Program-made: the position numbers and the translations under genes
The notes under the pieces: generated by a model
What the model saw: only the letters and a program-made list of their open reading frames with translations
Databases searched by the model: none
What the model was told of the DNA's origin: nothing
Sequence record: PZ476263.1
Strand: one strand, 5' to 3'
DNA: 64,000 nucleotides
From: a phage
Shown here: one piece after another, positions 17,922-64,000 of the stretch
Numbering within the stretch: position 1 is the first letter of the stretch
Layout: each line of letters starts with the position of its first letter

Positions 17922-18332
17922 TTAATCTTCCAGTGCTGCCAGTGCTGCCAGTTCCGCACGAAGTTCTTCTGGCGTTTTGTTCTTCAGTTCACGAAGTTCT
18001 GCATCTGCAAGCTGATCAATCAGGATCTGACGTTTACGCTTGATTTCTGCACGTTTTGCTGCTTCATCTTCTTCAGCTTTACGGATTTTAATTACCTCTT
18101 TAACAACGGCAAGAGCGAGATCCAGTTTCTTATCTTCTTGAGGTTTATCGTCCACAAAAGAAACTCCACCGAGGCTTTTAATTTCATCATCCAGGTCAAC
18201 AGCAATTCGGTTCAAAGAAAGTTCTGGACCACGAAGATGCAGTGTAAACAGGTCTTCAGTTGTGATATTGCCACGTACAGTTTTAAAACGCAGGTGCTGA
18301 CGAATAGCCTGTTCAAATACATTGTTACTCAT
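17922..18332 (-). CDS. hypothetical protein (coiled-coil)
   Basis: 136-aa ORF, charged helical C-terminus. Confidence 0.5.
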   Translation of the reverse strand: MSNNVFEQAIRQHLRFKTVRGNITTEDLFTLHLRGPELSLNRIAVDLDDEIKSLGGVSFVDDKPQEDKKLDLALAVVKEVIKIRKAEEDEAAKRAEIKRKRQILIDQLADAELRELKNKTPEELRAELAALAALED

Positions 18333-47331: not shown

Positions 47332-47494
47332 CAACATTCTCTTTATGCCCGTTTAGGCATACAATACTATATTAGATAATAAAACCCCTCGCTACGCTCA
47401 CCATTCTGGCCCTGGGGTTTTATATATCTATTAAAAAATTAACCACACTCACATCCGTTCGGTACTTAATTTTTTAAGTTTTCCCAAAATTGTG

Positions 47495-51855: not shown

Positions 51856-52122
51856 TTATTTTTTGTTTTCTTGCCAGGCTAGGACACCTAACCAGAAAAA
51901 GACGTTCCCTTTCTCGACCTTAGGTATATTACTTTCACCGCCACCGCTTTGCATCCATTCCGCACCGTTATTATACATCTCAAGCTCATAAAGATCGGTT
52001 ATCTTTGTATCCTTAAGGTTAAGGATTGTTTCAACCTTTAAGCCTGTTGCGCTCGCCACTTGGTGGACCGTTCCGCCTTGCCATTTTAAAGCGTGCATAA
52101 GGTGTAGTGTAGTAGTTGTCAT
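51856..52122 (-). CDS. putative HTH DNA-binding regulator
   Basis: 88 aa; helix-turn-helix-like TVHQVASATGLKVETILNL; diverges from rightward small-gene cluster. Confidence 0.45.
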   Translation of the reverse strand: MTTTTLHLMHALKWQGGTVHQVASATGLKVETILNLKDTKITDLYELEMYNNGAEWMQSGGGESNIPKVEKGNVFFWLGVLAWQENKK

Positions 52123-52329
52123 GTTGTGTTGCCCTTTCTTCTATTGTGCGCCCTAGTTGACGCGGTAAAAAGATATTAACTCTTCTTCCTATATAAAGCA
52201 AGTAAAAAGAAACATAAAAAAGATTGAAAATGTTGTTGACGTAGGAAAAAGGTTGGCGTAGTATTCATCTCATCGAACGGCGGCACAACTTAACGCCTAC
52301 ATTAATTAACGTTACTCACTAAGGGGTAA

Positions 52330-52518
52330 ATGATGGAAAGAAAAATTAATCAGCTTGCACCTGGTGCGGTAATGATTCACGAAGGATCAAAACACACTGT
52401 AGTAACTAATCGCCCACACAATGTAAGAGCAAACAAAAATATATTGCAGTTAAAGGATCGTTTTGGTATAGTACAGACTTACACGATTGAGTCAAACAAA
52501 TCAGTTATCGCACACTAA
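52330..52518 (+). CDS. hypothetical small protein
   Basis: 62 aa, RBS AAGGGG. Confidence 0.5.
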   Translation: MMERKINQLAPGAVMIHEGSKHTVVTNRPHNVRANKNILQLKDRFGIVQTYTIESNKSVIAH

Positions 52519-52535
52519 TTAAAAAGGTATACACT

Positions 52536-52871
52536 ATGAGTCAGCAAACTAAATATTTCATCGAAGGCGTTCAAGCGGCATCAACTGGTTTAGGTCCAGT
52601 AAGCCGTTATAAAAAGCCTGAGAACATCGCTGAATTTATGAAAGGGTATGAATCTGTAAGCCGTGAGGCAATGATACTGAGATTCGAATCTAATCCGGTA
52701 GGCAAGTCTAAAAATTCATACAGTGAAGCGCCCGACGTTGTTTATGTTGGTACAGTTAAGCAATGTAACGACCGATTGATCATGTTGCAGCAAAAAGACC
52801 GTAGCGGATTTTTTAAGGTCTACACTAATGATGGTAAACCTTATGAATACGAAAGCAAATATTTCAAATAA
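52536..52871 (+). CDS. hypothetical small protein
   Basis: 111-aa ORF. Confidence 0.5.
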   Translation: MSQQTKYFIEGVQAASTGLGPVSRYKKPENIAEFMKGYESVSREAMILRFESNPVGKSKNSYSEAPDVVYVGTVKQCNDRLIMLQQKDRSGFFKVYTNDGKPYEYESKYFK

Positions 52872-52886
52872 GTTTTAAAAAAGTAG

Positions 52887-52946
52887 TTGACAGCAAGAAA
52901 GTAAACAAGTATATTACACACATAGCGGCGGCAATGATGCAACCGC
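52887..52946 (+). promoter_or_regulatory. sigma70-like promoter plus conserved 5' leader hairpin
   Basis: TTGACA 52887-52892, 17 nt, TATATT 52910-52915; leader hairpin GCGG...CCGC 52925-52946. Confidence 0.6.
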
Positions 52947-52968
52947 AAGACAAAGAGAGATTATCAAG

Positions 52969-53184
52969 ATGGCTAAAGTAACTTTTAAAAAATCCCATAC
53001 CGTTTCCAATGTTGCAGCTGTAAACATGACTATGCCAACTTATAAAACACGCGACGCAGCTCGCAAGGTGGCAACGAAGATCCGCAGTGCTGGCTTGTCT
53101 GTCACGCAGCCTGTAAAAACGGAAAACGGTTGGCAATTGAATGTTAAGCATGTTGGCGGTACTCTTACAATCAACAAAGGCTAA
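52969..53184 (+). CDS. hypothetical small basic protein
   Basis: 71-aa ORF. Confidence 0.55.
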   Translation: MAKVTFKKSHTVSNVAAVNMTMPTYKTRDAARKVATKIRSAGLSVTQPVKTENGWQLNVKHVGGTLTINKG

Positions 53185-53254
53185 TAATAATACTAATCTT
53201 TCATAGCCGGATCGCTGGTCCGGCAAATAACCAACAATATAAAAGGAAACAAAG

Positions 53255-53407
53255 ATGGCTTATTCCAACAACGTAGAAAAAATCAAAGCAAACAAAGATC
53301 GTAAAGCCTGGAATGAAACGGTGATCCGTAAAGGTGCAAAACTGAATAAGACCAAACGTGATCGCACTGATAAACGTGCCTTTGTTGAAATGGAAACAGA
53401 GATCTAA
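53255..53407 (+). CDS. hypothetical small basic protein (not in ORF track)
   Basis: 50-aa ORF with RBS AAAGGAAA. Confidence 0.4.
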   Translation: MAYSNNVEKIKANKDRKAWNETVIRKGAKLNKTKRDRTDKRAFVEMETEI

Positions 53408-53408
53408 C

Positions 53409-53699
53409 ATGAAAAAATTTATTATCGGCGCGGCGGCGGTGTTTCTTTCCTTGAATTGCCAGGCTAATGATACAAAATATCTAAGATGTAACGCCGTCAT
53501 GACCGATGAACAATCAGGGAACACGTTTAAAAAGCCGTTCGAAATAAATCCGGCTGCATTTAATGACGGTGTATTCTACCAAAAGAAAGGGAAAGGCAGT
53601 ACAACGATCTACTATGACGCATCAAAAAACCGAGGGGATATCAGTATCATGGTTGGCCCTGAGGTTGTAGTGTCCGGTTACTTCTCCTGTGAGAAATAA
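53409..53699 (+). CDS. small secreted protein
   Basis: N-terminal signal peptide MKKFIIGAAAVFLSLNCQA; start placed at 53409 (track ORF starts 53358). Confidence 0.5.
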   Translation: MKKFIIGAAAVFLSLNCQANDTKYLRCNAVMTDEQSGNTFKKPFEINPAAFNDGVFYQKKGKGSTTIYYDASKNRGDISIMVGPEVVVSGYFSCEK

Positions 53700-53703
53700 A
53701 GCA

Positions 53704-53732
53704 AGGCCCCTCCCCTGGGGCCTTTTTCTTTT
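53704..53732 (+). terminator. rho-independent terminator
   Basis: AGGCCCC-tccc-ctGGGGCCT hairpin followed by TTTTTCTTTT. Confidence 0.7.
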
Positions 53733-53760
53733 ATGTCCCCCAAAATATTTAAAAATGTTG

Positions 53761-53788
53761 TTGACAGTAAAATTGATTCTGATAAGAT
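53761..53788 (+). promoter_or_regulatory. sigma70-like promoter driving ncRNA-like element copy 1
   Basis: TTGACA 53761-53766, 16 nt, TAAGAT 53783-53788. Confidence 0.55.
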
Positions 53789-53794
53789 GTATCC

Positions 53795-53869
53795 CATCAG
53801 GACGGGGAACGAAGTAAACACTTCCCGTTAAGTAGTCCAGGAGTAAGACATACGAAAAACTCCCCTGAT
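53795..53869 (+). ncRNA. candidate small structured RNA, copy 1
   Basis: No ORF; outer ATCAGG/CCTGAT pairing and inner ACGGGGA/UCCCGU hairpin; near-identical second copy at 56493-56569 with a different loop. Confidence 0.45.
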
Positions 53870-53887
53870 AAAAAGATTTAAAAGTGG

Positions 53888-53942
53888 TTGACAAGAAATT
53901 AAAAACTGTTAAGATGTATCACATAGGGCGGCAATGAGGCCG
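53888..53942 (+). promoter_or_regulatory. sigma70-like promoter plus leader hairpin
   Basis: TTGACA 53888-53893, TAAGAT 53910-53915, hairpin GCGGC-aatgag-GCCGC 53926-53942. Confidence 0.6.
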
Positions 53943-53965
53943 CAGATAACAAAGAGATAAAGAAA

Positions 53966-54337
53966 ATGGCTAAAAATATCAATGTTGCAATGTACGCTGA
54001 ATCCACCAACGCAGATAATGTAAAATTTAAAATTAGCGAGATTGAAGCGGTTCACATTTTGGCTAAACGTTGGTTTCAATCTTCATACGGTAATACTTAT
54101 TTCTCTTTGTCTGTTGATATCGAGATCAGCGGTAAAATGATTGAAGTGGTAAACGTGCCGTTCCAATATGGCTACGGGGATCACTTTGACACTGTGGCAA
54201 TGGAAGAATTTAGCAAGGTTATTGATATGGAAAGTAAAGAATTTTTAAAAGGTAATTACCTGACACGTTTTTGTAAAGATAATGATGTATCTGTTTACTG
54301 CAATGCAGTTGATGTAAAACGTAAAAAAGATTTATAA
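53966..54337 (+). CDS. hypothetical small protein
   Basis: 123-aa ORF. Confidence 0.55.
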   Translation: MAKNINVAMYAESTNADNVKFKISEIEAVHILAKRWFQSSYGNTYFSLSVDIEISGKMIEVVNVPFQYGYGDHFDTVAMEEFSKVIDMESKEFLKGNYLTRFCKDNDVSVYCNAVDVKRKKDL

Positions 54338-54343
54338 TTGTTG

Positions 54344-54404
54344 TTGACAAGATAATTAAAAAGCGTAGAATGTACAACATAGAGGGCGGGAATGGTTCCC
54401 GCCT
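54344..54404 (+). promoter_or_regulatory. sigma70-like promoter plus leader hairpin
   Basis: TTGACA 54344-54349, TAGAAT 54366-54371, hairpin GGCGGGAA...TTCCCGCC 54384-54404. Confidence 0.6.
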
Positions 54405-54425
54405 CACTAAAAAGAGATTAAAATC

Positions 54426-54650
54426 ATGGCTATTATCACCACCAAAATCACAAATACTGTTGGCGAGTCTTTTGTAGTTGCATTTATCACCAATCAACCT
54501 GTTGATGATATTCATTGCACTGTCAACAATTTTGCAGAAAATAATTTTGGTCAATGGTCATCTGTTGAGTACATTGAAACGGTCCAGGTTGCAGCGTTCA
54601 AGGTTAGCCAACATGTTGATTATATTGTTGCACTTGATGAATTAAATTAA
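54426..54650 (+). CDS. hypothetical small protein
   Basis: 74-aa ORF. Confidence 0.5.
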   Translation: MAIITTKITNTVGESFVVAFITNQPVDDIHCTVNNFAENNFGQWSSVEYIETVQVAAFKVSQHVDYIVALDELN

Positions 54651-54657
54651 AAAGTAG

Positions 54658-54714
54658 TTGCAAACAATCTTAAAAAGCGTATAATGTTTTACATAGAGCG
54701 GGAACTATTCCCGC
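54658..54714 (+). promoter_or_regulatory. sigma70-like promoter plus leader hairpin
   Basis: TTGCAA 54658-54663, TATAAT 54680-54685, hairpin GCGGGAA...TTCCCGC 54698-54714. Confidence 0.6.
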
Positions 54715-54736
54715 CAGATATAACGAGGAAAGTGTA

Positions 54737-54979
54737 ATGGAAACCATTTTAATCAAAGACACTGCAACTACTGTTACTTATGATAATGATTGTATTATCC
54801 CTGGTACTGATTACGGCGAACGTGTACCCGTTCAAGTCGAGATTGACACTACATACATTGACCAGGCTGAAAAGTGTATCACTATTGTTATTGGTGAATA
54901 TCGTTTTCTACCAGAAGAGATCCAAAAATGGCAGTATATGATTGACCGTTCGAAATTAGTTGCACAAAGTTTAAAATAA
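54737..54979 (+). CDS. hypothetical small acidic protein
   Basis: 80-aa ORF. Confidence 0.5.
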   Translation: METILIKDTATTVTYDNDCIIPGTDYGERVPVQVEIDTTYIDQAEKCITIVIGEYRFLPEEIQKWQYMIDRSKLVAQSLK

Positions 54980-54982
54980 TAC

Positions 54983-55042
54983 TTGCAATTAGTTTTCAGT
55001 ACTGTACAATGTTTTACATCGAGAGCGGTAGTATTGCCGCTC
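54983..55042 (+). promoter_or_regulatory. sigma70-like promoter plus leader hairpin
   Basis: TTGCAA 54983-54988, TACAAT 55005-55010, hairpin GAGCGG...CCGCTC 55023-55042. Confidence 0.6.
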
Positions 55043-55062
55043 ACAGCAAAGAGAAATCTAAA

Positions 55063-55305
55063 ATGAAAAAATTATCTTCCATCGTCAATCATAATGAAAT
55101 TTTCATTAATGAAAAATCCTACGCATGCATTCAACTAAAAGAGATGAAAGGTGATCGCCGTGTAACTGTCGTTCGCAAAGTTAAAAGTAAGCCTTTTAGT
55201 AATTACTCTATCGATACCGTTCGCATCAATAACGAAGATTATTTGATCGATAGTCAAATAACTTGCAGTCCCACAGCTTCAGTTAGTGCACCATATCACT
55301 ATTGA
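55063..55305 (+). CDS. hypothetical small protein
   Basis: Start placed at ATG 55063 downstream of promoter/hairpin (track starts 55009). Confidence 0.5.
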   Translation: MKKLSSIVNHNEIFINEKSYACIQLKEMKGDRRVTVVRKVKSKPFSNYSIDTVRINNEDYLIDSQITCSPTASVSAPYHY

Positions 55306-55330
55306 CAGAAGGGCCGAGAGGCCCTATAAT
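55302..55330 (+). promoter_or_regulatory. consensus sigma70 promoter with GC hairpin in spacer
   Basis: TTGACA 55302-55307, 17-nt spacer containing GGGCC-gaga-GGCCC, TATAAT 55325-55330. Confidence 0.6.
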
Positions 55331-55364
55331 ACAAACCACCTTAACAAAGAATGAGAGAAACAAA

Positions 55365-55571
55365 ATGATTAATGAAAAACAGATTAACGATGTTCGTGAT
55401 GAGGCTTACTGTACTGCTATTACCAATGGATCACGCGCCGCTTTCAATCTTGTTGTTGACTTGTACCCTGAGCAAGCCGAAAACATTCTTTACCAAGTCA
55501 GTGTAAAGTTGGAAGCAACCGGACACACAAAGTTATCAAACGGAATTGACAAGTTGATCAAAACACTTTAA
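55365..55571 (+). CDS. hypothetical small protein
   Basis: Start placed at ATG 55365 (MINEKQ) after the promoter; track ORF starts 55302. Confidence 0.5.
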   Translation: MINEKQINDVRDEAYCTAITNGSRAAFNLVVDLYPEQAENILYQVSVKLEATGHTKLSNGIDKLIKTL

Positions 55572-55653
55572 TATCTGGTTAACTTTTATCAATGCCGTCG
55601 TTATAGTGGCGGCATGAATAAAAGAAATCATTCTACAACGTAAAGGTTGAAAA

Positions 55654-55965
55654 ATGGATCAAGTCATCCCAATGATAGGTTTAATCGGCTTAGGCTACAT
55701 CGCTACCAGTTTAGCTATGAGTTACATCAATAAGAGAAGAGATAAAATGTTTTGTTACTTTGAATATACTTACAACGGTAAAACAGGGTCATCCCGTGAC
55801 TATGGCCCAATGTTAGAGATTGATGCGGTTGGTGCTATGCGGTATCGAGAGAGCTTAGGGGCAAAGATAACGTTTGAAGTATACCGATCTACCGAAGAGG
55901 AATTATTTTCGATCATTGATGAACGTGCTTACATGCAAGAGCAACAAGATAAACGCCGTAAATAA
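55654..55965 (+). CDS. small membrane-anchored protein
   Basis: 103 aa; N-terminal hydrophobic helix IPMIGLIGLGYIATSLAM. Confidence 0.5.
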   Translation: MDQVIPMIGLIGLGYIATSLAMSYINKRRDKMFCYFEYTYNGKTGSSRDYGPMLEIDAVGAMRYRESLGAKITFEVYRSTEEELFSIIDERAYMQEQQDKRRK

Positions 55966-56014
55966 TTAATATTGTAAATAATTAACAAATCAAACAACAA
56001 GCAAGGTAAACATA

Positions 56015-56158
56015 ATGAATACAAATATTAACCGTGAGAAAGTAAAAAGCAAAAACAAAATGGACTATGAAGAAGTAAAAGCAATGAAGAAAAGCAAAGA
56101 TAACAAACAACAACGCCGCAGGACGCGCTACAGTTGGGAAAACATAGACATCCTTTAA
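56015..56158 (+). CDS. hypothetical small basic protein (not in ORF track)
   Basis: 47-aa Lys/Arg-rich ORF. Confidence 0.35.
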   Translation: MNTNINREKVKSKNKMDYEEVKAMKKSKDNKQQRRRTRYSWENIDIL

Positions 56159-56190
56159 GATTGTATAAGTTGAAACATAAATCATCACAA

Positions 56191-56217
56191 AGGCCCTTTA
56201 AGGGCCTTATTTCATTG
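56191..56217 (+). terminator. rho-independent terminator
   Basis: AGGCCC-ttta-AGGGCCT hairpin followed by T-rich tract. Confidence 0.6.
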
Positions 56218-56227
56218 GAGGGAATAC

Positions 56228-56455
56228 ATGATTAATCCATATAGCTTAACAGAGTTGATCCGACTTCTGAAATCTAAGCCGCTAGGGACGGCTTATACTT
56301 ATATTGTGATGGAGGGTAAGGATTATGCAGGGGTAAGCCGATCTATCACGGCAACGGCCTCTAGGGAGGGCCTAAAGGTGAGTATTTCGCAGATCCTTAT
56401 TGTTGATCCTTCCACATGTGAGACGAAAGAAGCTGTAAAAATAATTAGAAAATAG
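56228..56455 (+). CDS. hypothetical small protein
   Basis: 75 aa, RBS GGAGGG. Confidence 0.5.
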   Translation: MINPYSLTELIRLLKSKPLGTAYTYIVMEGKDYAGVSRSITATASREGLKVSISQILIVDPSTCETKEAVKIIRK

Positions 56456-56458
56456 TAT

Positions 56459-56486
56459 TGACACTGTATTGGAATAGTGTAGAATT
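56459..56486 (+). promoter_or_regulatory. sigma70-like promoter driving ncRNA-like element copy 2
   Basis: TTGACA 56459-56464, 16 nt, TAGAAT 56481-56486. Confidence 0.55.
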
Positions 56487-56492
56487 TATTAC

Positions 56493-56569
56493 ATCAGGAC
56501 GGGGAACAAAAACAAATAGTTCCCCGTTAAGTAGCCCAGGAGTAAGGCAGACGAAAAACTCCCCTGATA
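56493..56569 (+). ncRNA. candidate small structured RNA, copy 2
   Basis: Same element as 53795-53869; perfect ACGGGGAA/TTCCCCGT stem; loop differs while stems are conserved. Confidence 0.45.
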
Positions 56570-56576
56570 AAAAGAT

Positions 56577-56604
56577 TGACAACAAATAGTAAATAAGTAC
56601 AATA
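56577..56604 (+). promoter_or_regulatory. sigma70-like promoter
   Basis: TTGACA 56577-56582, 16 nt, TACAAT 56599-56604. Confidence 0.55.
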
Positions 56605-56654
56605 AGACTTAATGAGACGGGCAAAGGTCCAAAACAACAACAAGGTAACTTATC

Positions 56655-56891
56655 ATGATTGAACAAATCAAAACTACTAAACCAAATTTTAACGGTGATG
56701 TTTCTCACTTTATTGGTGACAATGAAAGAGGAACACCCTACGCTGCGGTAACAGTTCAGCCAAATGGTGATTATTGGTTTACCTTGTACGGGTCTTATTC
56801 CTTTGGACGTTCGGCACATGAAAAGATCTTACAAGTAGTTAAGCCTACAGGAAAGAACATCACGGCAGAAAAATATTTTACTAAACATTAA
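56655..56891 (+). CDS. hypothetical small protein
   Basis: 78-aa ORF. Confidence 0.5.
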   Translation: MIEQIKTTKPNFNGDVSHFIGDNERGTPYAAVTVQPNGDYWFTLYGSYSFGRSAHEKILQVVKPTGKNITAEKYFTKH

Positions 56892-56898
56892 AAAGTAC

Positions 56899-56956
56899 TT
56901 CCAAACTAAGTTTAAAAGCGTATAATGTTTTACATCAAGAGCGGCAAGGGCCGCTC
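56899..56956 (+). promoter_or_regulatory. sigma70-like promoter plus leader hairpin
   Basis: TTCCAA (weak -35) 56899-56904, TATAAT 56921-56926, hairpin GAGCGGC-aagg-GCCGCTC 56939-56956. Confidence 0.55.
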
Positions 56957-56978
56957 ACACAAACAAAGAGAAATTATC

Positions 56979-57230
56979 ATGACTAACAAAACTAAAACTA
57001 CTAAAACTTATAACGGTCACAAAAACAAAACTCATTGGAATGTTTCCTTATGGATTAATAACGGTGAGTCATTGTATCGGCTTGCTCAAAATTGCATCGC
57101 TCAAAGTAAAACGAAAGATATTGCGGCGGAATGTATGTACCGCAGATTAAAAGCCAACGGTACTACTACAACGCCGGACGGATTCAAGTATAGCACTACG
57201 GCGATCCGTGCTGCAATGGTTGGAATGTAA
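56979..57230 (+). CDS. hypothetical small basic protein
   Basis: Start placed at ATG 56979 downstream of promoter/hairpin (track starts 56925). Confidence 0.5.
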   Translation: MTNKTKTTKTYNGHKNKTHWNVSLWINNGESLYRLAQNCIAQSKTKDIAAECMYRRLKANGTTTTPDGFKYSTTAIRAAMVGM

Positions 57231-57286
57231 CATTCAATACTGAGTTAATGGCGGGATTAGTTCCCGCCTTTGCGGAGAAATATCTA

Positions 57287-57574
57287 ATGAGCAAAGTAAT
57301 TGACTATAAAGTGTTAACTAAATCATTGTCAATCAGTGAGTGCAACGATGGTTTTTGGATGTACGATGAAACACGCGGCATGAATCTAGCTATGAAGGCT
57401 AAAACGGCTGAGGCGGCGTATGTGCAAGCCCTGGAATACTACCAGAGACGTTTAAAGGAAGTAGAAAACAATTATCAGAATCTCAAAGAGAAAGTAGATC
57501 ATTTCGTTGGTCAATTCGTTGACGATGACGAGGAAGACGGGCACTACTGCAACCGCTGCGGATCTTACAATTAA
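57287..57574 (+). CDS. hypothetical small protein
   Basis: Start placed at ATG 57287 after leader hairpin GGCGGGAttagTTCCCGCC (57250-57268); track starts 57248. Confidence 0.45.
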   Translation: MSKVIDYKVLTKSLSISECNDGFWMYDETRGMNLAMKAKTAEAAYVQALEYYQRRLKEVENNYQNLKEKVDHFVGQFVDDDEEDGHYCNRCGSYN

Positions 57575-57596
57575 ATAAATAAATAAATAAAAAAGT

Positions 57597-57658
57597 TTGA
57601 CAACGTTTTAAATTAGTGTAATATGTATCACATAGAGCGGTGGAATGGTCTACCGCTC
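57597..57658 (+). promoter_or_regulatory. sigma70-like promoter plus leader hairpin
   Basis: TTGACA 57597-57602, TAATAT 57619-57624, hairpin GAGCGGT...ACCGCTC 57635-57658. Confidence 0.6.
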
Positions 57659-57678
57659 ACAAATAAGAGATTATCAAA

Positions 57679-57858
57679 ATGACTATCATCGCAAAAACTG
57701 AAATAATCGGCCTGGATTCTATCATCATGACGTTTGAAGAACAAAAAGGTATGTATGTAGTTTCCTATAGTAATTATGTTCGGGAGTATGAAACGGTAGA
57801 CGAAGCCTTTGAAAGTTACATTCGTCAGGTGAATAAAGCATACGACGACTACCGCTAA
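57679..57858 (+). CDS. hypothetical small protein (not in ORF track)
   Basis: 59-aa ORF directly downstream of promoter/hairpin. Confidence 0.45.
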   Translation: MTIIAKTEIIGLDSIIMTFEEQKGMYVVSYSNYVREYETVDEAFESYIRQVNKAYDDYR

Positions 57859-57945
57859 AATATATTACCAGTACTATTAAAGATATTGACAATGTTTGAT
57901 AGTACTGTATGATTGATTTTATCAAGACTCCTAAAGGATCACAAA

Positions 57946-58089
57946 ATGAAAATTTGCCAATGTGGTAAAAAGTCTATCCCTGGTTTAAAACGTGGTGTTT
58001 CTCTTTGTCAGTATCATTATAATGTTAAAATATGGGGTAAACAGTGGGCCGACCAAGTGGAAGCATCAAAGAAAGTAAAAAGTAATTAA
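57946..58089 (+). CDS. hypothetical small Cys-containing protein (not in ORF track)
   Basis: 47-aa ORF MKICQCGKK...CQYHY; promoter TTGACA/TATGAT upstream. Confidence 0.35.
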   Translation: MKICQCGKKSIPGLKRGVSLCQYHYNVKIWGKQWADQVEASKKVKSN

Positions 58090-58180
58090 AATATTTAAAC
58101 AGTTGACATTGGTTTATGTGGTCGGGTACAATGACCACATAGACAAATGAAACAAACAATATAAATTAACGAGGTTTATC

Positions 58181-58492
58181 ATGATCTTTGAAGTTTTTGC
58201 GGGTATGTGTTTTTATGGTGCTGCCGCCGTTCGTCAATGCGATGATTATGTAGTTGAATCATATAATGATGTTTTAACTTGTGAGATCGTAACTAGTGAA
58301 TACTCACGGGATCGCCGTTGGATTAATCCAGCCTGTATCGACTCTCTGGAAGCTATGCCAGAAGGTCAAGAATTAACAGAAGAAGAAACAGAAGAGGTTA
58401 GAGAGGTATTATCTTACATGCTCGATAACTTAGATTCTAGTGCACTGCAAAGAATGTATGCAGTAGCACAAGAAAGCGAACTGACCAACTGA
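58181..58492 (+). CDS. hypothetical small acidic protein
   Basis: 103-aa ORF; promoter TTGACA/TACAAT with hairpin ATGTGGTC...GACCACAT over the -10. Confidence 0.5.
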   Translation: MIFEVFAGMCFYGAAAVRQCDDYVVESYNDVLTCEIVTSEYSRDRRWINPACIDSLEAMPEGQELTEEETEEVREVLSYMLDNLDSSALQRMYAVAQESELTN

Positions 58493-58519
58493 CCAAAACA
58501 GATAACAAGGTAAACAAAA

Positions 58520-58702
58520 ATGAAAGCATCAATGATGGTTGCAACTGTAAACATTATCATAGGTAACGGCACGGGACACCATGAGATCATAAAAAACAAG
58601 GCTTACAGCCTTGCAACCTTAAAGGCGGATATGCGCTTATCCCTGGGGCAAATCAAAGCTTACTTTCGTGAAGGTCATCACAAAAAGGTAGTAAATTCTT
58701 AA
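58520..58702 (+). CDS. hypothetical small protein
   Basis: 60-aa ORF. Confidence 0.45.
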   Translation: MKASMMVATVNIIIGNGTGHHEIIKNKAYSLATLKADMRLSLGQIKAYFREGHHKKVVNS

Positions 58703-58721
58703 AATATTTCTTTACTTGTGG

Positions 58722-58750
58722 GCCTATCTTCTTTAAGATAGGCTTTATCA
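58722..58750 (+). terminator. rho-independent terminator
   Basis: GCCTATCTT-cttt-AAGATAGGC hairpin followed by T-rich tract. Confidence 0.55.
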
Positions 58751-58782
58751 GTTTTAGAATACACAAACAAAGAGGGTACAAA

Positions 58783-59076
58783 ATGAAAAAGGCAAATCAA
58801 TATTTCTTCCTGAATGCCGTTAATGATCATATCGTTGTTAGCATGTTGGTTAATTCGAATCCAATGATGCTAACATTTTGTGACGAGGCATACACTTTAC
58901 CAAAACATAAAAAAGCATTTTTAAAAGTGGTTGCAACTCCAAATAAAACAGGGTATATTCTTGACTATAAGGTCACAGAAGGTCAGAAAGTGATTGCAGT
59001 CGGTGAAAGCACCGAGATCCCTAAGGATGAGATCTACGGCGTGATCGCTGGTTTTGTGAATGCAGTGTTTGAATAA
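58783..59076 (+). CDS. hypothetical small protein
   Basis: 97 aa, RBS AGAGGG. Confidence 0.5.
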   Translation: MKKANQYFFLNAVNDHIVVSMLVNSNPMMLTFCDEAYTLPKHKKAFLKVVATPNKTGYILDYKVTEGQKVIAVGESTEIPKDEIYGVIAGFVNAVFE

Positions 59077-59102
59077 TCATACAACCATAAAGAGACAAGA
59101 TC

Positions 59103-59324
59103 ATGAATAAAGTAACTGAATTTTTATATCAATCATTGGCAACTTTACTGTTTACCGTTGCAGGTATCGCCCTTATCAGTGGTGTTGGTGCAATGTTTAT
59201 CGGTTACTTCACTTTTACCGCTATTACTTTCATCGTTTGTCCTGTAATGGCATACGCCGCTACAAAAATTGTAATCTATGTGGATGATAAAATTTATCCT
59301 AAAAAGTCATTGCATACTAAGTAA
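59103..59324 (+). CDS. small membrane protein
   Basis: 73 aa, two hydrophobic helices. Confidence 0.5.
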   Translation: MNKVTEFLYQSLATLLFTVAGIALISGVGAMFIGYFTFTAITFIVCPVMAYAATKIVIYVDDKIYPKKSLHTK

Positions 59325-59387
59325 GATTAAAGTATATTACATACATTGAAGCGGTGAACGGTTCACCGCACAAAAAGAGTAAATAAA

Positions 59388-59540
59388 ATGTTTAAGTTAA
59401 TAACCTGGGAACATCAATCATCTTCACCAATCACCCGCACCTTTTTTGATCTGTGTACCGCTTATCGTTTAGCTAAAGGTGGTTACTATAAAGCCCAGAT
59501 TATTGATGAAAACAATGTAATACTGTACGAATTCAAATAA
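59388..59540 (+). CDS. hypothetical small protein (not in ORF track)
   Basis: 50-aa ORF downstream of leader hairpin GCGGTGAAC...GTTCACCGC (59349-59370). Confidence 0.4.
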   Translation: MFKLITWEHQSSSPITRTFFDLCTAYRLAKGGYYKAQIIDENNVILYEFK

Positions 59541-59742
59541 AAAACTTTAAAAAAGTAGTTGACACGAATAACAGATAGTATATAATTACTATCAACAAGA
59601 CGGGAAACAGGTTCCCCACTAAATAATCTTACAGGAGTCCGTAAAATGATGGCAATCTTCTTAATCTCTCTTCTGGTCGCTGTTTCTTCTGCAACTGCTG
59701 CCGCTGTTCTGTATGATACCCGTTACAATGAGAACTGATAAA

Positions 59743-59970
59743 ATGCTAAACATGAAAAACGTTGTCGGAAAGACTGAGACACTAAAAGCGCTTAATCCTG
59801 GTCAATCAACGGTGTGGATCTGCACTGAGGCCGGAAAGGTCGAAAGAGATATGAGATTATTTACTGCGACCGCTTGCAGATTAAAATTTAAGATTGTTCA
59901 AAGTAGCGCGATGATTGTAAAGGTAAATGATTTACCAGTAGAATCCATTATTATTACCCGTATAGAGTGA
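59743..59970 (+). CDS. hypothetical small protein
   Basis: Start uncertain (ATG 59713 or 59743); a 30-codon hydrophobic mini-ORF (59647-59738) lies upstream. Confidence 0.45.
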   Translation: MLNMKNVVGKTETLKALNPGQSTVWICTEAGKVERDMRLFTATACRLKFKIVQSSAMIVKVNDLPVESIIITRIE

Positions 59971-59982
59971 AAGAGGCCATAA

Positions 59983-60291
59983 ATGTATAAAGACTATATT
60001 TTCAACGATAAATATAACAATGTGATTGAAATCAGCGAACAATCGAAAGATGCGGCGGTAAATCGTATCGGGCAAGTTTTAGGATTATCAGCAAAGGATC
60101 TTATTCTAGTGCATGATCTTATTCTAGTGCATGAGTCTGATAATCCTGATTACCTGGCTGCAAGGGATAGCGGCTTGAATCATGAGTCTGCAATAGAGGT
60201 CGCAAATGGTGAGATATCACTAGATGACGCTCTCGGGGCAATGGATATGGTTAGCGAGTGTAATTTTATGCTTATGGAGGCTTCAAAATGA
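59983..60291 (+). CDS. hypothetical small acidic protein
   Basis: 102 aa; internal 22-bp perfect direct repeat (aggatcttattctagtgcatga twice, 60095-60138). Confidence 0.5.
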   Translation: MYKDYIFNDKYNNVIEISEQSKDAAVNRIGQVLGLSAKDLILVHDLILVHESDNPDYLAARDSGLNHESAIEVANGEISLDDALGAMDMVSECNFMLMEASK

Positions 60292-60480
60292 ATCCTAACG
60301 GCCTTGAATTTAAAGCTATTCCCAACCTTGCCGGATTGCGTAACAAATCGGCACGAAATCAAAGAAGATTGGAGAAAAAGAAGAATAATAGAAAATAATT
60401 GTTGACACCCTTCCTTAAATCCTTTAAATTGCTCCACATAGGGCGGCAATAGTGCCGCTCACTAATCTGGAGTTATCACC

Positions 60481-60882
60481 ATGACTTTTACAATCCTTTC
60501 TTATGCTGACGTAGCAAACATCGCTAAAACTTTTGGACCTCGGGCACTGGAATATGCCGTATCTAATGGTAATCTGACAAAGGAGCAATGCTACCTGATC
60601 GGCAGTTGTAAACGTTGGGCGGTATCCCGTAACATCGAGATTGAAAACGTTAATGATGGGAATATCGAGTACACTGTTGATGCCGTATTCCAATCTATTG
60701 ACCTGGGCGGTATCTATAATACCAATCTTAACGATGTTCGTATTATCCGCACTGGCTTCGGTGCTTATGATGTATCTATCCGTGAAGCTATGGACAAGGG
60801 ATACATTAGCAAGGATCAATTAGCTTACATCATGCAACAAACTAAGGAACGTAACGAAGTAAAGGCTATCTTAGGCTTGTAA
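60481..60882 (+). CDS. hypothetical protein
   Basis: 133-aa ORF downstream of promoter TTGACA plus leader hairpin GCGGCA...TGCCGC. Confidence 0.55.
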   Translation: MTFTILSYADVANIAKTFGPRALEYAVSNGNLTKEQCYLIGSCKRWAVSRNIEIENVNDGNIEYTVDAVFQSIDLGGIYNTNLNDVRIIRTGFGAYDVSIREAMDKGYISKDQLAYIMQQTKERNEVKAILGL

Positions 60883-60900
60883 TCCGGTAGTCAGCTTACA

Positions 60901-60926
60901 AGGCCCCTTCATGGGGCCTTTCTTTT
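60901..60926 (+). terminator. rho-independent terminator
   Basis: AGGCCCC-ttcat-GGGGCCT hairpin followed by TTCTTTT. Confidence 0.7.
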
Positions 60927-60969
60927 ATGTGTTGAGCAAAAATAAATTAAAAATAATTCAAAAAGACTA

Positions 60970-60997
60970 TTGACTCAACCGCAAAAAAGGGTAGAAT
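60970..60997 (+). promoter_or_regulatory. sigma70-like promoter driving long ORF-free leader
   Basis: TTGACT 60970-60975, 16 nt, TAGAAT 60992-60997. Confidence 0.55.
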
Positions 60998-61003
60998 GTA
61001 TTA

Positions 61004-61287
61004 CATCAAGACGATGAAGCAGCGATGTAAAGTAGTCGCCCTGGTGAGTAAGTTCGGTGAAGGTTAATCGACCTAAGTAACCGAAAGTTAGTAAGGATAA
61101 GGACTCTGGGATTGAATACGTCATAGACGGGCTACACTATCCAGTCAGTGAAGAGGTCGGCTGAGCAATGACCCTACGGCTTTACGAAGACCGTGCTATC
61201 CTGTGACTAACAACAAAAACAGTAAAAAGCAGTAAGAAACACAAAGTAAAGAATTTTAATCAAATCACAAAATAAAAGGTTGACATC
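61004..61287 (+). ncRNA. candidate structured RNA / long 5' leader (about 280 nt, ORF-free)
   Basis: Promoter-proximal region with no ORF over 17 codons; many local stem-forming segments; the TTGACA at 61279 is too close to the ATG to serve the downstream gene, so 61288 is probably transcribed through this leader. Confidence 0.4.
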
Positions 61288-61527
61288 ATGCAAACGATCA
61301 TTACTAAGTTTTTGGCCCCTACTAATACCCGTTGCGCTCGCATCATTGCAAAATGCTGGTTGACAAATATCACGATTGCTTATCCAGTAGCGGAGATCAA
61401 CGAAGCCCACAAAATTGCAGCTCAGCAATTGATCGTTAAGTTAAAGATGACGACGGGCAATGATTGGAATATCGTTGCAAGTGGTGAAACACCGGACGGA
61501 TCAGGTTATGCATTTATCATCAAATAA
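61288..61527 (+). CDS. hypothetical small protein
   Basis: 79 aa, RBS AAAGG. Confidence 0.5.
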   Translation: MQTIITKFLAPTNTRCARIIAKCWLTNITIAYPVAEINEAHKIAAQQLIVKLKMTTGNDWNIVASGETPDGSGYAFIIK

Positions 61528-61609
61528 GTGTTGACAAGCTAGGTAATAAATAGTAAATTGATGTTCTGGCGGCGCAACGGTGCACGGCATAGGTTAAGGA
61601 CCAATTATC

Positions 61610-61996
61610 ATGAAAACAGAAATCATTATTGAAATCATCAACGGTTATAAAGAAGCCTTTATCTTTGCTGAATCAGCCAGGGATCATGAAGGTAATTTTA
61701 TAGAGAACATGACTGATTATGAATTTTCAGATCAAGCCCAGCAACGGATCATTCGTGACGTGGCGGCTTTTTGTGATGCCAATGATGCCGCTATCTCTGA
61801 GGCAATGAGCGACGGCGCAACAGCCAACCAGATCGGGAATGATTTACATTTTACCCGTAACGGTCACGGCGTAGGCTTTTGGGATCGCCCTGAAATATAC
61901 ACCACTAACACGGCTAACCGCTTAACTAATGCGGCTAAGTTTATGCCAGATGTGACGGCTTACATTCGTGAAGATAATTTGATTTATATTGAATAA
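61610..61996 (+). CDS. hypothetical acidic protein
   Basis: 128-aa ORF; promoter TTGACA/TAAATT upstream. Confidence 0.55.
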   Translation: MKTEIIIEIINGYKEAFIFAESARDHEGNFIENMTDYEFSDQAQQRIIRDVAAFCDANDAAISEAMSDGATANQIGNDLHFTRNGHGVGFWDRPEIYTTNTANRLTNAAKFMPDVTAYIREDNLIYIE

Positions 61997-62079
61997 AAGT
62001 ATTGACACAGATCGGCATTGTGCTATGATTTACCACGTAGGGCGGCAATATCGCCGCCTCAATCAAAGGAAGTAAAACC

Positions 62080-62379
62080 ATGAATCAGACCACTTTAATT
62101 TCTTCTCTTCTTTCTTATGACGATGACCGCCTGAGCAACGGATCACTTTTTGATGCTATTACCTTTGAATCCTCAAAGATTGGTGCAAGCGTTCTTAAAT
62201 TTGCATATCTTGAAAATTACGAAATCAATCAGATTCGTTTGAACATCCTGGATAGCATTACCACTGAGGAAGGCGTAAAGGTTAGCAAGGCCGCAAGCAA
62301 GGAAGGTAAAACGTTTATCATTGTTGATTATCTCGATATCTATGGGGATAAGGCCAGTAAGTATTTTATTGCACAATAA
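62080..62379 (+). CDS. hypothetical small protein
   Basis: 99-aa ORF downstream of TTGACA/TATGAT plus leader hairpin GGCGGC...GCCGCC. Confidence 0.55.
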   Translation: MNQTTLISSLLSYDDDRLSNGSLFDAITFESSKIGASVLKFAYLENYEINQIRLNILDSITTEEGVKVSKAASKEGKTFIIVDYLDIYGDKASKYFIAQ

Positions 62380-62390
62380 AGGAAAACATC

Positions 62391-62582
62391 ATGACCGTTG
62401 ATCAAGTTAGAAAGGTTTTAGCAGCGTTGCGCTATCACAACCACAGCAAGGTAAAGAATGATCCTGATTATCTGGATTCATCATTGGAAGAGGATACCTT
62501 GCAAGCTATAAGCCATATGCAAACAATGCTTAAGCGTATGACTGAGAAAAACAGATCAGATTATATTGGCGATAAGATTTAA
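62391..62582 (+). CDS. hypothetical small protein
   Basis: 63-aa ORF. Confidence 0.45.
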   Translation: MTVDQVRKVLAALRYHNHSKVKNDPDYLDSSLEEDTLQAISHMQTMLKRMTEKNRSDYIGDKI

Positions 62583-62670
62583 AAAGTACTTGCATTGTAC
62601 TTAGAATCAAGTATAATGTTTTATATCGAGAGGGGGGAAACGGTTCTCCCTGATAATAAGGAATAAAATC

Positions 62671-62874
62671 ATGACTGCTGCTAACCGCCTGATCGCCGTC
62701 CTGAATAAAGCAAAAACTAACCTTTTAGACGTTCAAATCAAAGAACAGGCGAACGGTGAGATTCTCGCCACGGTATCCGATGGCGGTTACATATCAGAGT
62801 CATTCACTACCGATAATCTGGATCATCTTGTCTGGAAATTAGAAATTATCGTAGAGGATATGCAAATCATCTAA
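62671..62874 (+). CDS. hypothetical small protein
   Basis: 67-aa ORF downstream of TTGCAT/TATAAT plus GC hairpin. Confidence 0.5.
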   Translation: MTAANRLIAVLNKAKTNLLDVQIKEQANGEILATVSDGGYISESFTTDNLDHLVWKLEIIVEDMQII

Positions 62875-62883
62875 TCATTGCAA

Positions 62884-62907
62884 AGGCCCTTCGGGGCCTT
62901 TCTTGTT
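62884..62907 (+). terminator. rho-independent terminator ending the small-gene cluster
   Basis: AGGCCC-ttcg-GGGCCT hairpin followed by TTCTTGTT. Confidence 0.7.
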
Positions 62908-62912
62908 ATCGG

Positions 62913-62986
62913 TGTCACTCCCCCAACCTATATAAACCTTCCTATCCTATTCCTCCCATCAATCCACAACCTAACCCAACCGTTTG
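62913..62986 (+). repeat. G-depleted tract on + strand
   Basis: About 70 consecutive nt with no G (tcactcccccaacctatataaaccttcctatcc...). Confidence 0.6.
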
Positions 62987-63278
62987 GATTATCTAATCAT
63001 CAATACCTATAAAATCTTATACTATATCACAATAGCTTTTCCCTTGTCCACAATAATTATGAAAGAGAACCATTGCCAGAATATCGAGAGGGTGGCGCGA
63101 CCGTAGGGAGCGACACTATAAAACGAGTATACCCTCCTACCGCTATGCGGTCATCGGTGATAACCGATATCGTTACACGCTATCTGTTCTCTTCGTTTCC
63201 TCGTTTTATAGTGTCTATCAGTTAAACAAAATTAGTCTTTGTCAATTATTATTTCACTTATTCCCAAAATAAATTGGC

Positions 63279-63362
63279 TGTAGTTACTATTGAATGTAGC
63301 AATAGTTCAAATGATTGTAGTAATAGTTCAACTGAATGTAGTAATAGTTAAAATGATTGTAT
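63279..63362. repeat. tandem 21-bp direct repeats (about 3.5 copies)
   Basis: tgaatgtagcaatagttcaaa / tgattgtagtaatagttcaac / tgaatgtagtaatagttaaaa / tgattgtat. Confidence 0.7.
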
Positions 63363-64000
63363 ATTCACTTTATTTGAATATGTAATCAATAGGGTTGCTT
63401 ATACCATAGATGATTAGTAGTGTCAACAGGTAATTATTGTTCGCAAAGAGATAGAGATTGTTTATTCTTTGTCCACAATGAAGGTCGTAAGGGCACTTAT
63501 AGCATGGTTTTCTTTACCTTTGCTTGATAAAGCACGCTTCTCTCTTCTTGTCAAATAAAAATTTATTTTTTCTTTCTTGCCAGAATATCGAGGGTGACTT
63601 GCCCCAATGTTGGGAGGGCCGTCGGTCGTGGAATCTATCAAGTTGGAATGATTCGACCTGCAACCTTTATTGTTGGGATAGTCACGTCTGTAATCGTCCC
63701 AAACCAGGCGGGGCGCGGAGTAGGGGAGTAGTCGGGTCGTCAGTCAATCCATTTTGGCAACTGGTCCGGCTTAGTGCGTATAAGTTGTATTATGTTAAAT
63801 GCAGATCGAAATCGGTATTCTAAATCAGATTCAGAAGTCAATAGAAATCTTTAACTTTATTGTTGGAAGGGCACAACATTTTTCTTGACAAGTCGAATCA
63901 AAGATGTATTGTGGATTGAAAATAAATGAAGATAATGCTTGACTTCTTGGATATTTTGAAAACATCGGACCCCCCTCCCCCTCCCCCGAGAGCGGCGTGC

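Follow-up and report, generated by a model that had tools for sequence, protein, structure and literature searches.

Tandem duplications generated by slipped-strand mispairing are reportedly described by the Streisinger model and by Levinson and Gutman (1987). Such duplications are a typical product of polymerase slippage, and palindromic features are enriched in insertions and deletions (indels; PMC3638132). In the published slippage model, an identity of about 6 nt or more is what stabilises a misaligned loop (PMC3638132). Within protein-coding sequences, in-frame tandem duplications of 3–84 bp are common in blaKPC variants (PMC12593533), where they have arisen repeatedly, in many isolates, and confer a phenotype shown to be selectable.

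In the present study we analysed a stretch of 64,000 nt of the phage sequence record PZ476263.1 (referred to below, at its full length, as the window), in which a small conserved gene carries a doubled 18-bp unit of six codons (DLILVH). This is probably a recent, lineage-private, in-frame duplication that arose by slippage or template switching. The gene, the two copies of the unit and the overlapping downstream open reading frame (ORF) are located as follows:

59983..60291, + strand: the repeat-bearing gene, 102 aa (96 aa in all relatives), identified as a gene from PHROG matches and dN/dS
60097..60114, + strand: copy 1 of GATCTTATTCTAGTGCAT, codons 39–44, encoding DLILVH; an 18-column gap in the related loci L001–L004
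60115..60132, + strand: copy 2 of GATCTTATTCTAGTGCAT, codons 45–50, encoding DLILVH; 100 % identical to copy 1
60133..60134, + strand: GA dinucleotide, identical to the first 2 nt of the unit; the breakpoint microhomology, which stretches the period-18 identity to 38 nt
60288..60398, + strand: downstream 36-aa ORF (PHROG 31652), whose start overlaps the stop of the repeat-bearing gene (ATGA)

The phage locus shares with the described slippage indels, in which the copy count of a unit changes, (i) an exact head-to-tail duplication, (ii) a single-copy ancestor, (iii) a GA dinucleotide common to both breakpoints, (iv) an AT-rich sequence, and (v) a palindromic feature nearby. It differs from the slippage model in that a displacement of 18 nt combined with a microhomology of 2 nt places it at the long-loop, weak-anchor end. 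With the blaKPC duplications it has in common a length that is a multiple of three, a reading frame that is kept and a repeated peptide in an otherwise conserved protein; however, the phage duplication is present in one genome and there is no evidence of selection. As a mutation it is an ordinary recent in-frame microduplication, one more case of a well-known type.

Analysis with Tandem Repeats Finder placed the repeat at 60097..60134 of the window, with a period of 18, 2.1 copies, 100 % matches and a score of 76. The 18-mer GATCTTATTCTAGTGCAT begins at 60097 and again at 60115, the copies lying head to tail with 100 % identity and without a spacer, and the identity at period 18 extends over 38 nt (two copies plus GA). 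Either copy may be regarded as the inserted one, the register being ambiguous by 2 nt. The original prediction had described a perfect 22-bp tandem spanning 60095..60138 (the letters of this span are AGGATCTTATTCTAGTGCATGATCTTATTCTAGTGCATGAGTCT). A perfect tandem repeat is indeed present in this gene, and both the ORF (59983..60291) and the encoded peptide, DLILVH-DLILVH, were correctly given, as translation of the ORF showed; the size was not, as the unit is 18 bp and a single occurrence of the 22-mer AGGATCTTATTCTAGTGCATGA, at 60095, was detected. The span had been drawn 2 nt too far to the left and 4 nt too far to the right. The wrong figure of 22 bp leaves the interpretation unaffected. 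The register of the unit coincides with a codon boundary ((60097-59983) mod 3 = 0), and exactly six codons are doubled, so that residues 38–51 of the 102-aa product read K-DLILVH-DLILVH-E.

In 64 kb, 1.5e-7 runs with 20 or more matches at period 18 are expected (analytic value, per-base match probability of 0.262), or 8e-6 when the same expectation is summed over periods 6 to 60. When the window was simulated 200 times with a first-order Markov model, no perfect tandem of two copies and a period of at least 12 arose, and the repeat at 60097..60134 is the sole perfect tandem (at least two copies, period of at least 10) in the 64-kb window. A chance origin of the 18-nt repeat is excluded.

The set of relatives used for comparison comprised 11 syntenic loci from 11 different sample or run accessions (ENA, JGI, Logan), representing five distinct alleles; the loci were drawn from contigs encoding four homologues found in a database of 5.8 billion proteins. 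Each of these four homologues is 96 aa long, i.e. 102 minus 6, with one DLIL[V/A]H, and the unit is likewise single-copy in all 11 loci. The nearest allele, that of L001–L004, differs from the window over 381 aligned columns by two substitutions (N27K and A59V) and by one gap, which covers exactly the 18 columns of the unit. Apart from the 18-nt insertion, no indel in 3.6 kb of aligned sequence exceeds 4 nt. Since the other alleles vary synonymously within the unit (ATT TTG, ATC TTA), while the two copies in the window match exactly, the duplication can be regarded as young. The exact-product look-up revealed no record of the 102-aa protein. The junction 24-mer, found in the duplicated allele only, was absent from IMG/VR, JGI metagenomes and GTDB genomes, and a search with the gapped flank pattern gave no match for either allele in IMG/VR or JGI metagenomes. 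The single-copy state of all relatives, together with the absence of the junction elsewhere, indicates that one copy is ancestral and that the duplication is derived, recent and, in public data, private to PZ476263.1. A recent slippage duplication was one of the two options raised in the original prediction, an assembly artefact being the other, and the comparison with related genomes (11 of 11 loci and four of four homologues with one copy) speaks for it. The site showed one copy in every relative and two in the window, and not the copy-number series of a contingency locus or VNTR.

The ancestral sequence would have read ...CAAAG, followed by GATCTTATTCTAGTGCAT and GAGT..., so that GA both opens the unit and follows it. 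The identity at the breakpoint thus amounts to 2 nt, which is a weak anchor for classical slippage. A one-step origin may be envisaged, by replication slippage or by microhomology-mediated template switching, in which the nascent 3' end, ...GCAT(GA), would re-pair with the unit-opening GA 18 nt upstream, after which the unit would be copied a second time. Judged from the breakpoints, a microhomology-mediated template switch (FoSTeS/MMBIR-like) would fit equally well as slippage. Since a perfect 11-bp stem holds the unit in its loop, polymerase pausing may have contributed; the two arms of the stem are the following:

60081..60091, + strand: left arm AGGATTATCAG of an inverted repeat (perfect, 11 nt) flanking the duplicated unit on both sides
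60137..60147, + strand: right arm CTGATAATCCT of the same inverted repeat, pairing with the left arm

The loop of this inverted repeat measured 27 nt in the single-copy ancestor and measures 45 nt here. Perfect inverted repeats of this kind (at least 11 nt, loop of at most 60 nt) were detected at just two loci in 64 kb, and 0.4 % of simulated 291-nt sequences hold one. The co-location of the duplicated unit with such a rare inverted repeat is notable, and an inverted repeat beside the unit agrees with the reported enrichment of indels at palindromes and with tandem duplication as an outcome of slippage (PMC3638132). However, a simple hairpin model does not obviously predict the doubling of only part of a loop, and the role of the inverted repeat in the duplication is circumstantial. 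Compared with shuffled sequences, the DNA hairpin was only marginally stabilised (z = -1.9; 10 of 200 shuffles fold equally well), and the z-scores of folding were no better than -0.9 to -1.9. The arms pair at 11 of 11 positions in L001 and L011, at 10 of 11 in L005 and at 7 of 11 in L008 and L009. We rejected a conserved functional RNA or DNA stem-loop as an explanation of the inverted repeat, given that the pairing decays across the alleles without compensatory changes. The other perfect short-loop inverted repeat of at least 11 nt in the window (47431–47477) has 12-nt AT-rich arms, TTAAAAAATTAA and TTAATTTTTTAA, and is intergenic, with a TTGACA shortly downstream of it, at about 47495.

The ATG of the repeat-bearing gene is preceded, 6 nt upstream, by AAGAGG, and its stop codon overlaps the start of the next ORF (ATGA). 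The reading frame of the gene, its stop codon and the overlapping downstream start are all unchanged by the duplication; the frame and start of the downstream ORF are unaffected because the duplicated length is a multiple of three. The dN/dS values obtained for the five distinct alleles (0.12–0.31) indicate that the gene is genuine and under purifying selection.

The encoded protein consists of a lineage-specific N-terminal part (approximately aa 1–50) and a C-terminal module (approximately aa 56–98), the latter being common to small proteins of T1-like and other phages. Profile comparison revealed matches to PHROG 9323 (E = 8.8e-15), PHROG 9085 (E = 3.7e-10) and PHROG 4823 (E = 1.7e-6), all annotated as 'unknown function'; these matches cover the C-terminal module alone (aa 56–98) and reflect a shared motif, ...GLN.E.A..VA.G.ISL.DALG.MDM..E.... 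The module was found by tblastn in 567 phage records, mostly of T1-like and Klebsiella phages, none of which covered at least 80 % of the protein. Proteins of 69–74 aa encoded by Tunavirus UP30 and Changchunvirus W011D align with the C-terminal module, but in the alignment these T1-like proteins are without the N-terminal approximately 45 residues that bear DLILVH. The full-length architecture is confined to one 50 % cluster, as revealed by a profile search of a library of 1.84 billion representatives. Two further proteins returned by the representative search, P0005 (1409 aa, six matching stretches) and P0009 (535 aa, four stretches), were judged spurious, because they are long, internally repetitive proteins in which one short motif, KRIG..LS..DL(I/V), is matched many times. 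No Pfam match was obtained for the protein or for 10 relatives with the C-terminal module, the best hit of a profile search against the PDB had an E-value of only 0.78, and Foldseek comparison with viral structures gave no match at E <= 0.001.

Within the unit, the residues D, L, I, L and H are invariant in the alignment of homologues. AlphaFold2 models were built from a shallow alignment and are of low confidence (pLDDT of 60.7 for the single-copy and 55.7 for the duplicated protein). The single-copy model contains strands at residues 4–8 and 13–17, a helix at 22–33 and a strand at 40–44 (LILVH), followed by three helices. At this low confidence, DLILVH may form the third strand of a beta-beta-alpha-beta N-terminal unit, and the insertion would repeat a conserved hydrophobic element at the point where this unit meets the C-terminal helical module, again a low-confidence placement. 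In the model of the duplicated protein, residues 39–52 fall below a pLDDT of 50 and the strand is lost. Since the family is under purifying selection and the segment is invariant or nearly so, the insertion is more likely to be neutral to mildly harmful than beneficial; a duplication that is most likely neutral or mildly deleterious would simply be too young to have been purged.

Several other explanations of the repeat were considered. It is unlikely to be an artefact, whether introduced by the assembler or polisher, by template switching in vitro during library amplification, or by a minority variant of the phage stock that entered the consensus. The uniqueness of the allele, with neither its protein nor its junction found in the resources searched, and the single copy in all related loci would be expected from such an error, and the flanking 11-nt inverted repeat could equally drive template switching by a polymerase in vitro. 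Against this, the entire repeat of 38 nt is below any modern read length, short-read assemblers usually collapse tandem repeats rather than create them, and a lone duplication of this type in 64 kb gives no sign of systematic error; moreover, the insertion is exactly in frame in a constrained gene, whereas an artefact would be in frame only one time in three. Transposition leaves a direct duplication of the target sequence, and the repeat could in principle be the footprint of a transposon or homing element that inserted and was precisely excised, but the copies abut with nothing between them, no mobile element occupies the site of the unit in any of the 11 syntenic loci, and the target-site duplications of common bacterial insertion-sequence families are shorter than 18 bp; the probability of such an origin is very small. 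Equally small is the probability that the repeat functions at the DNA level, as an operator, iteron or other protein-binding site, or as a contingency repeat inside the gene. Two exact 18-nt direct repeats, each with GATC and CTAG, could suggest this, as could the copy-number-variable 21-nt non-coding repeat of the same genome (63291..63361). Nevertheless, the repeat is missing from all 11 relatives, four of them nearly identical in this gene, and is therefore not a conserved site; there are two copies only, in frame and coding, and the DNA of the unit is conserved no further than the protein requires. Iteron or operator direct repeats were accordingly rejected, as the relatives do not keep the repeat and the sequence around it is coding and under purifying selection.

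It is also very unlikely that the duplication is adaptive, i.e. that the six-residue repeat alters the activity or partner specificity of the protein and was selected, for example with a new host strain or in escape from defence. The gene sits among small, fast-evolving genes with a high density of promoters, as is typical of host-takeover regions, and all three differences from the nearest allele (two non-synonymous substitutions, no synonymous ones, and the duplication) alter the protein; in-frame tandem duplications can be adaptive (PMC12593533). However, with approximately 78 % of sites being non-synonymous, two of two substitutions would be non-synonymous by chance about 60 % of the time, so the count of two against zero is not significant and positive selection deduced from it was rejected. 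Furthermore, the doubled segment is invariant or nearly so in a family under purifying selection, and the duplication is present in one genome only. A more specific proposal appears highly improbable, namely that the protein is an 'early' one that interacts with the host, that the duplication was selected in it as a gain and became fixed when the phage adapted to a new host strain, and that the hairpin had made the site prone to mutation. If this were true, the repeated beta-strand or linker would alter oligomerisation or target binding, and the adaptive in-frame duplications of blaKPC would have an equivalent in a phage.

As a recent duplication by slippage or template switching, which is the reading we prefer, the 18-nt repeat is at most a strain marker and a quality-control flag (an annotation of 102 aa versus 96 aa). 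It also illustrates, in one case, how a microduplication can lie within the loop of a perfect inverted repeat and, as a natural insertion variant beside a conserved module, could be a useful allele for studies of the protein.

From sequence comparison, the source of the window appears to be an approximately 140-kb Vequintavirinae-like phage of E. coli. The best cultured matches are the 'Septuagintavirus' phages A73, W70, A5-4 and A7_1, plus UPEC06, with approximately 80 % identity over approximately 20 % of a 24-kb query. The Vequintavirinae phages W70, A73 and A5-4 of this group have been described (PMC11370258); the Septuagintavirus phages differ from the present one in having no full-length homologue of the repeat-bearing gene. 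Phage Jab has a genome of 142.1 kb with a GC content of 40.09 % (PMC13538427), and the Jab lineage is resembled here in both respects, the related metagenomic contigs measuring 138–141 kb and the GC content being 39 %.

The gene belongs to a + strand array of small ORFs with promoter-like repeats and terminator-like hairpins (an 'early-like' region). The promoter-like repeats form a family composed of an A-rich tract, TTGACA, a spacer of 16–17 nt, a TATAAT-like hexamer and a conserved leader, ACAT.GAG.GCGG, with at least nine members in 52000–64000 (e.g. at 53876, 54332, 54646, 54971, 56887, 59547 and 62578). One member lies upstream of the repeat-bearing gene:

59559..59586, + strand: perfect sigma-70-type consensus TTGACA-16-TATAAT, a member of the promoter-like repeat family

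This sequence is the likely promoter of a block of four ORFs (59646..60398) that includes the repeat-bearing gene. The promoter-like repeats are often followed by GC hairpins, either GGCGGGAATGGTTCCCGCC (at 54385, 54697 and 57250) or GGGCGGCAAT..GCCGC (at 53925, 60441 and 62039). The segment 60390–60500 of the window matches many Vequintavirinae and Stephanstirmvirinae phages at 78–89 %. Scans for tRNAs and Rfam families in the neighbourhood of the gene found nothing.

The ORF immediately upstream (59713–59970) encodes 85 aa from its first ATG. In the relatives a product of 75 aa is called, with a start equivalent to approximately 59743, and PHROG 5988 matches residues 14–85; on these two grounds, translation probably starts at the later ATG. 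A further ORF of this region, 60481–60882, matches PHROG 10173 (E = 1.5e-54). Patches of small genes in the early region (approximately 53800–62700, including 60544–60882) display 76–91 % DNA identity with the approximately 350-kb jumbo phages 121Q, PBECO4, TH47 and UE-S1. As the jumbo phages represent a different phage group, this sharing implies horizontal exchange of small genes.

The divergence of the window from L001–L004 is mosaic. The 18-nt insertion excepted, there are 0–5 mismatches per 100 nt in 59623–60423, while about 1 kb upstream (58928–59326) the figure is 16–23 in L001, L002 and L004 and 4–14 in L003. This pattern suggests recombination among co-circulating relatives.

The end of the window (62900–64000) is gene-poor, with short ORFs only, most of them starting with TTG or GTG; neither a tRNA nor an Rfam match at the gathering score was found in it. 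It contains a tandem repeat of the 21-nt unit TGAATGTAGTAATAGTTCAAA at 63291–63361 (3.4 copies, 86 % matches), of which there are approximately 2.4 copies in L002 and approximately 1.4 in L001, with conserved flanks. Unlike the 18-nt duplication, the 21-nt array is a genuine VNTR or iteron-like non-coding repeat. The same stretch also holds a CCCCCT run of 2.8 copies (63971–63987), and may have a regulatory role, contain an origin or represent a genome end. Elsewhere in the window, a perfect 9-nt tandem repeat of CCAGTGCTG (2.6 copies, 17930–17952) lies within the - strand ORF 17922–18332 and encodes the C-terminal ...AELAALAALED of its 136-aa product.
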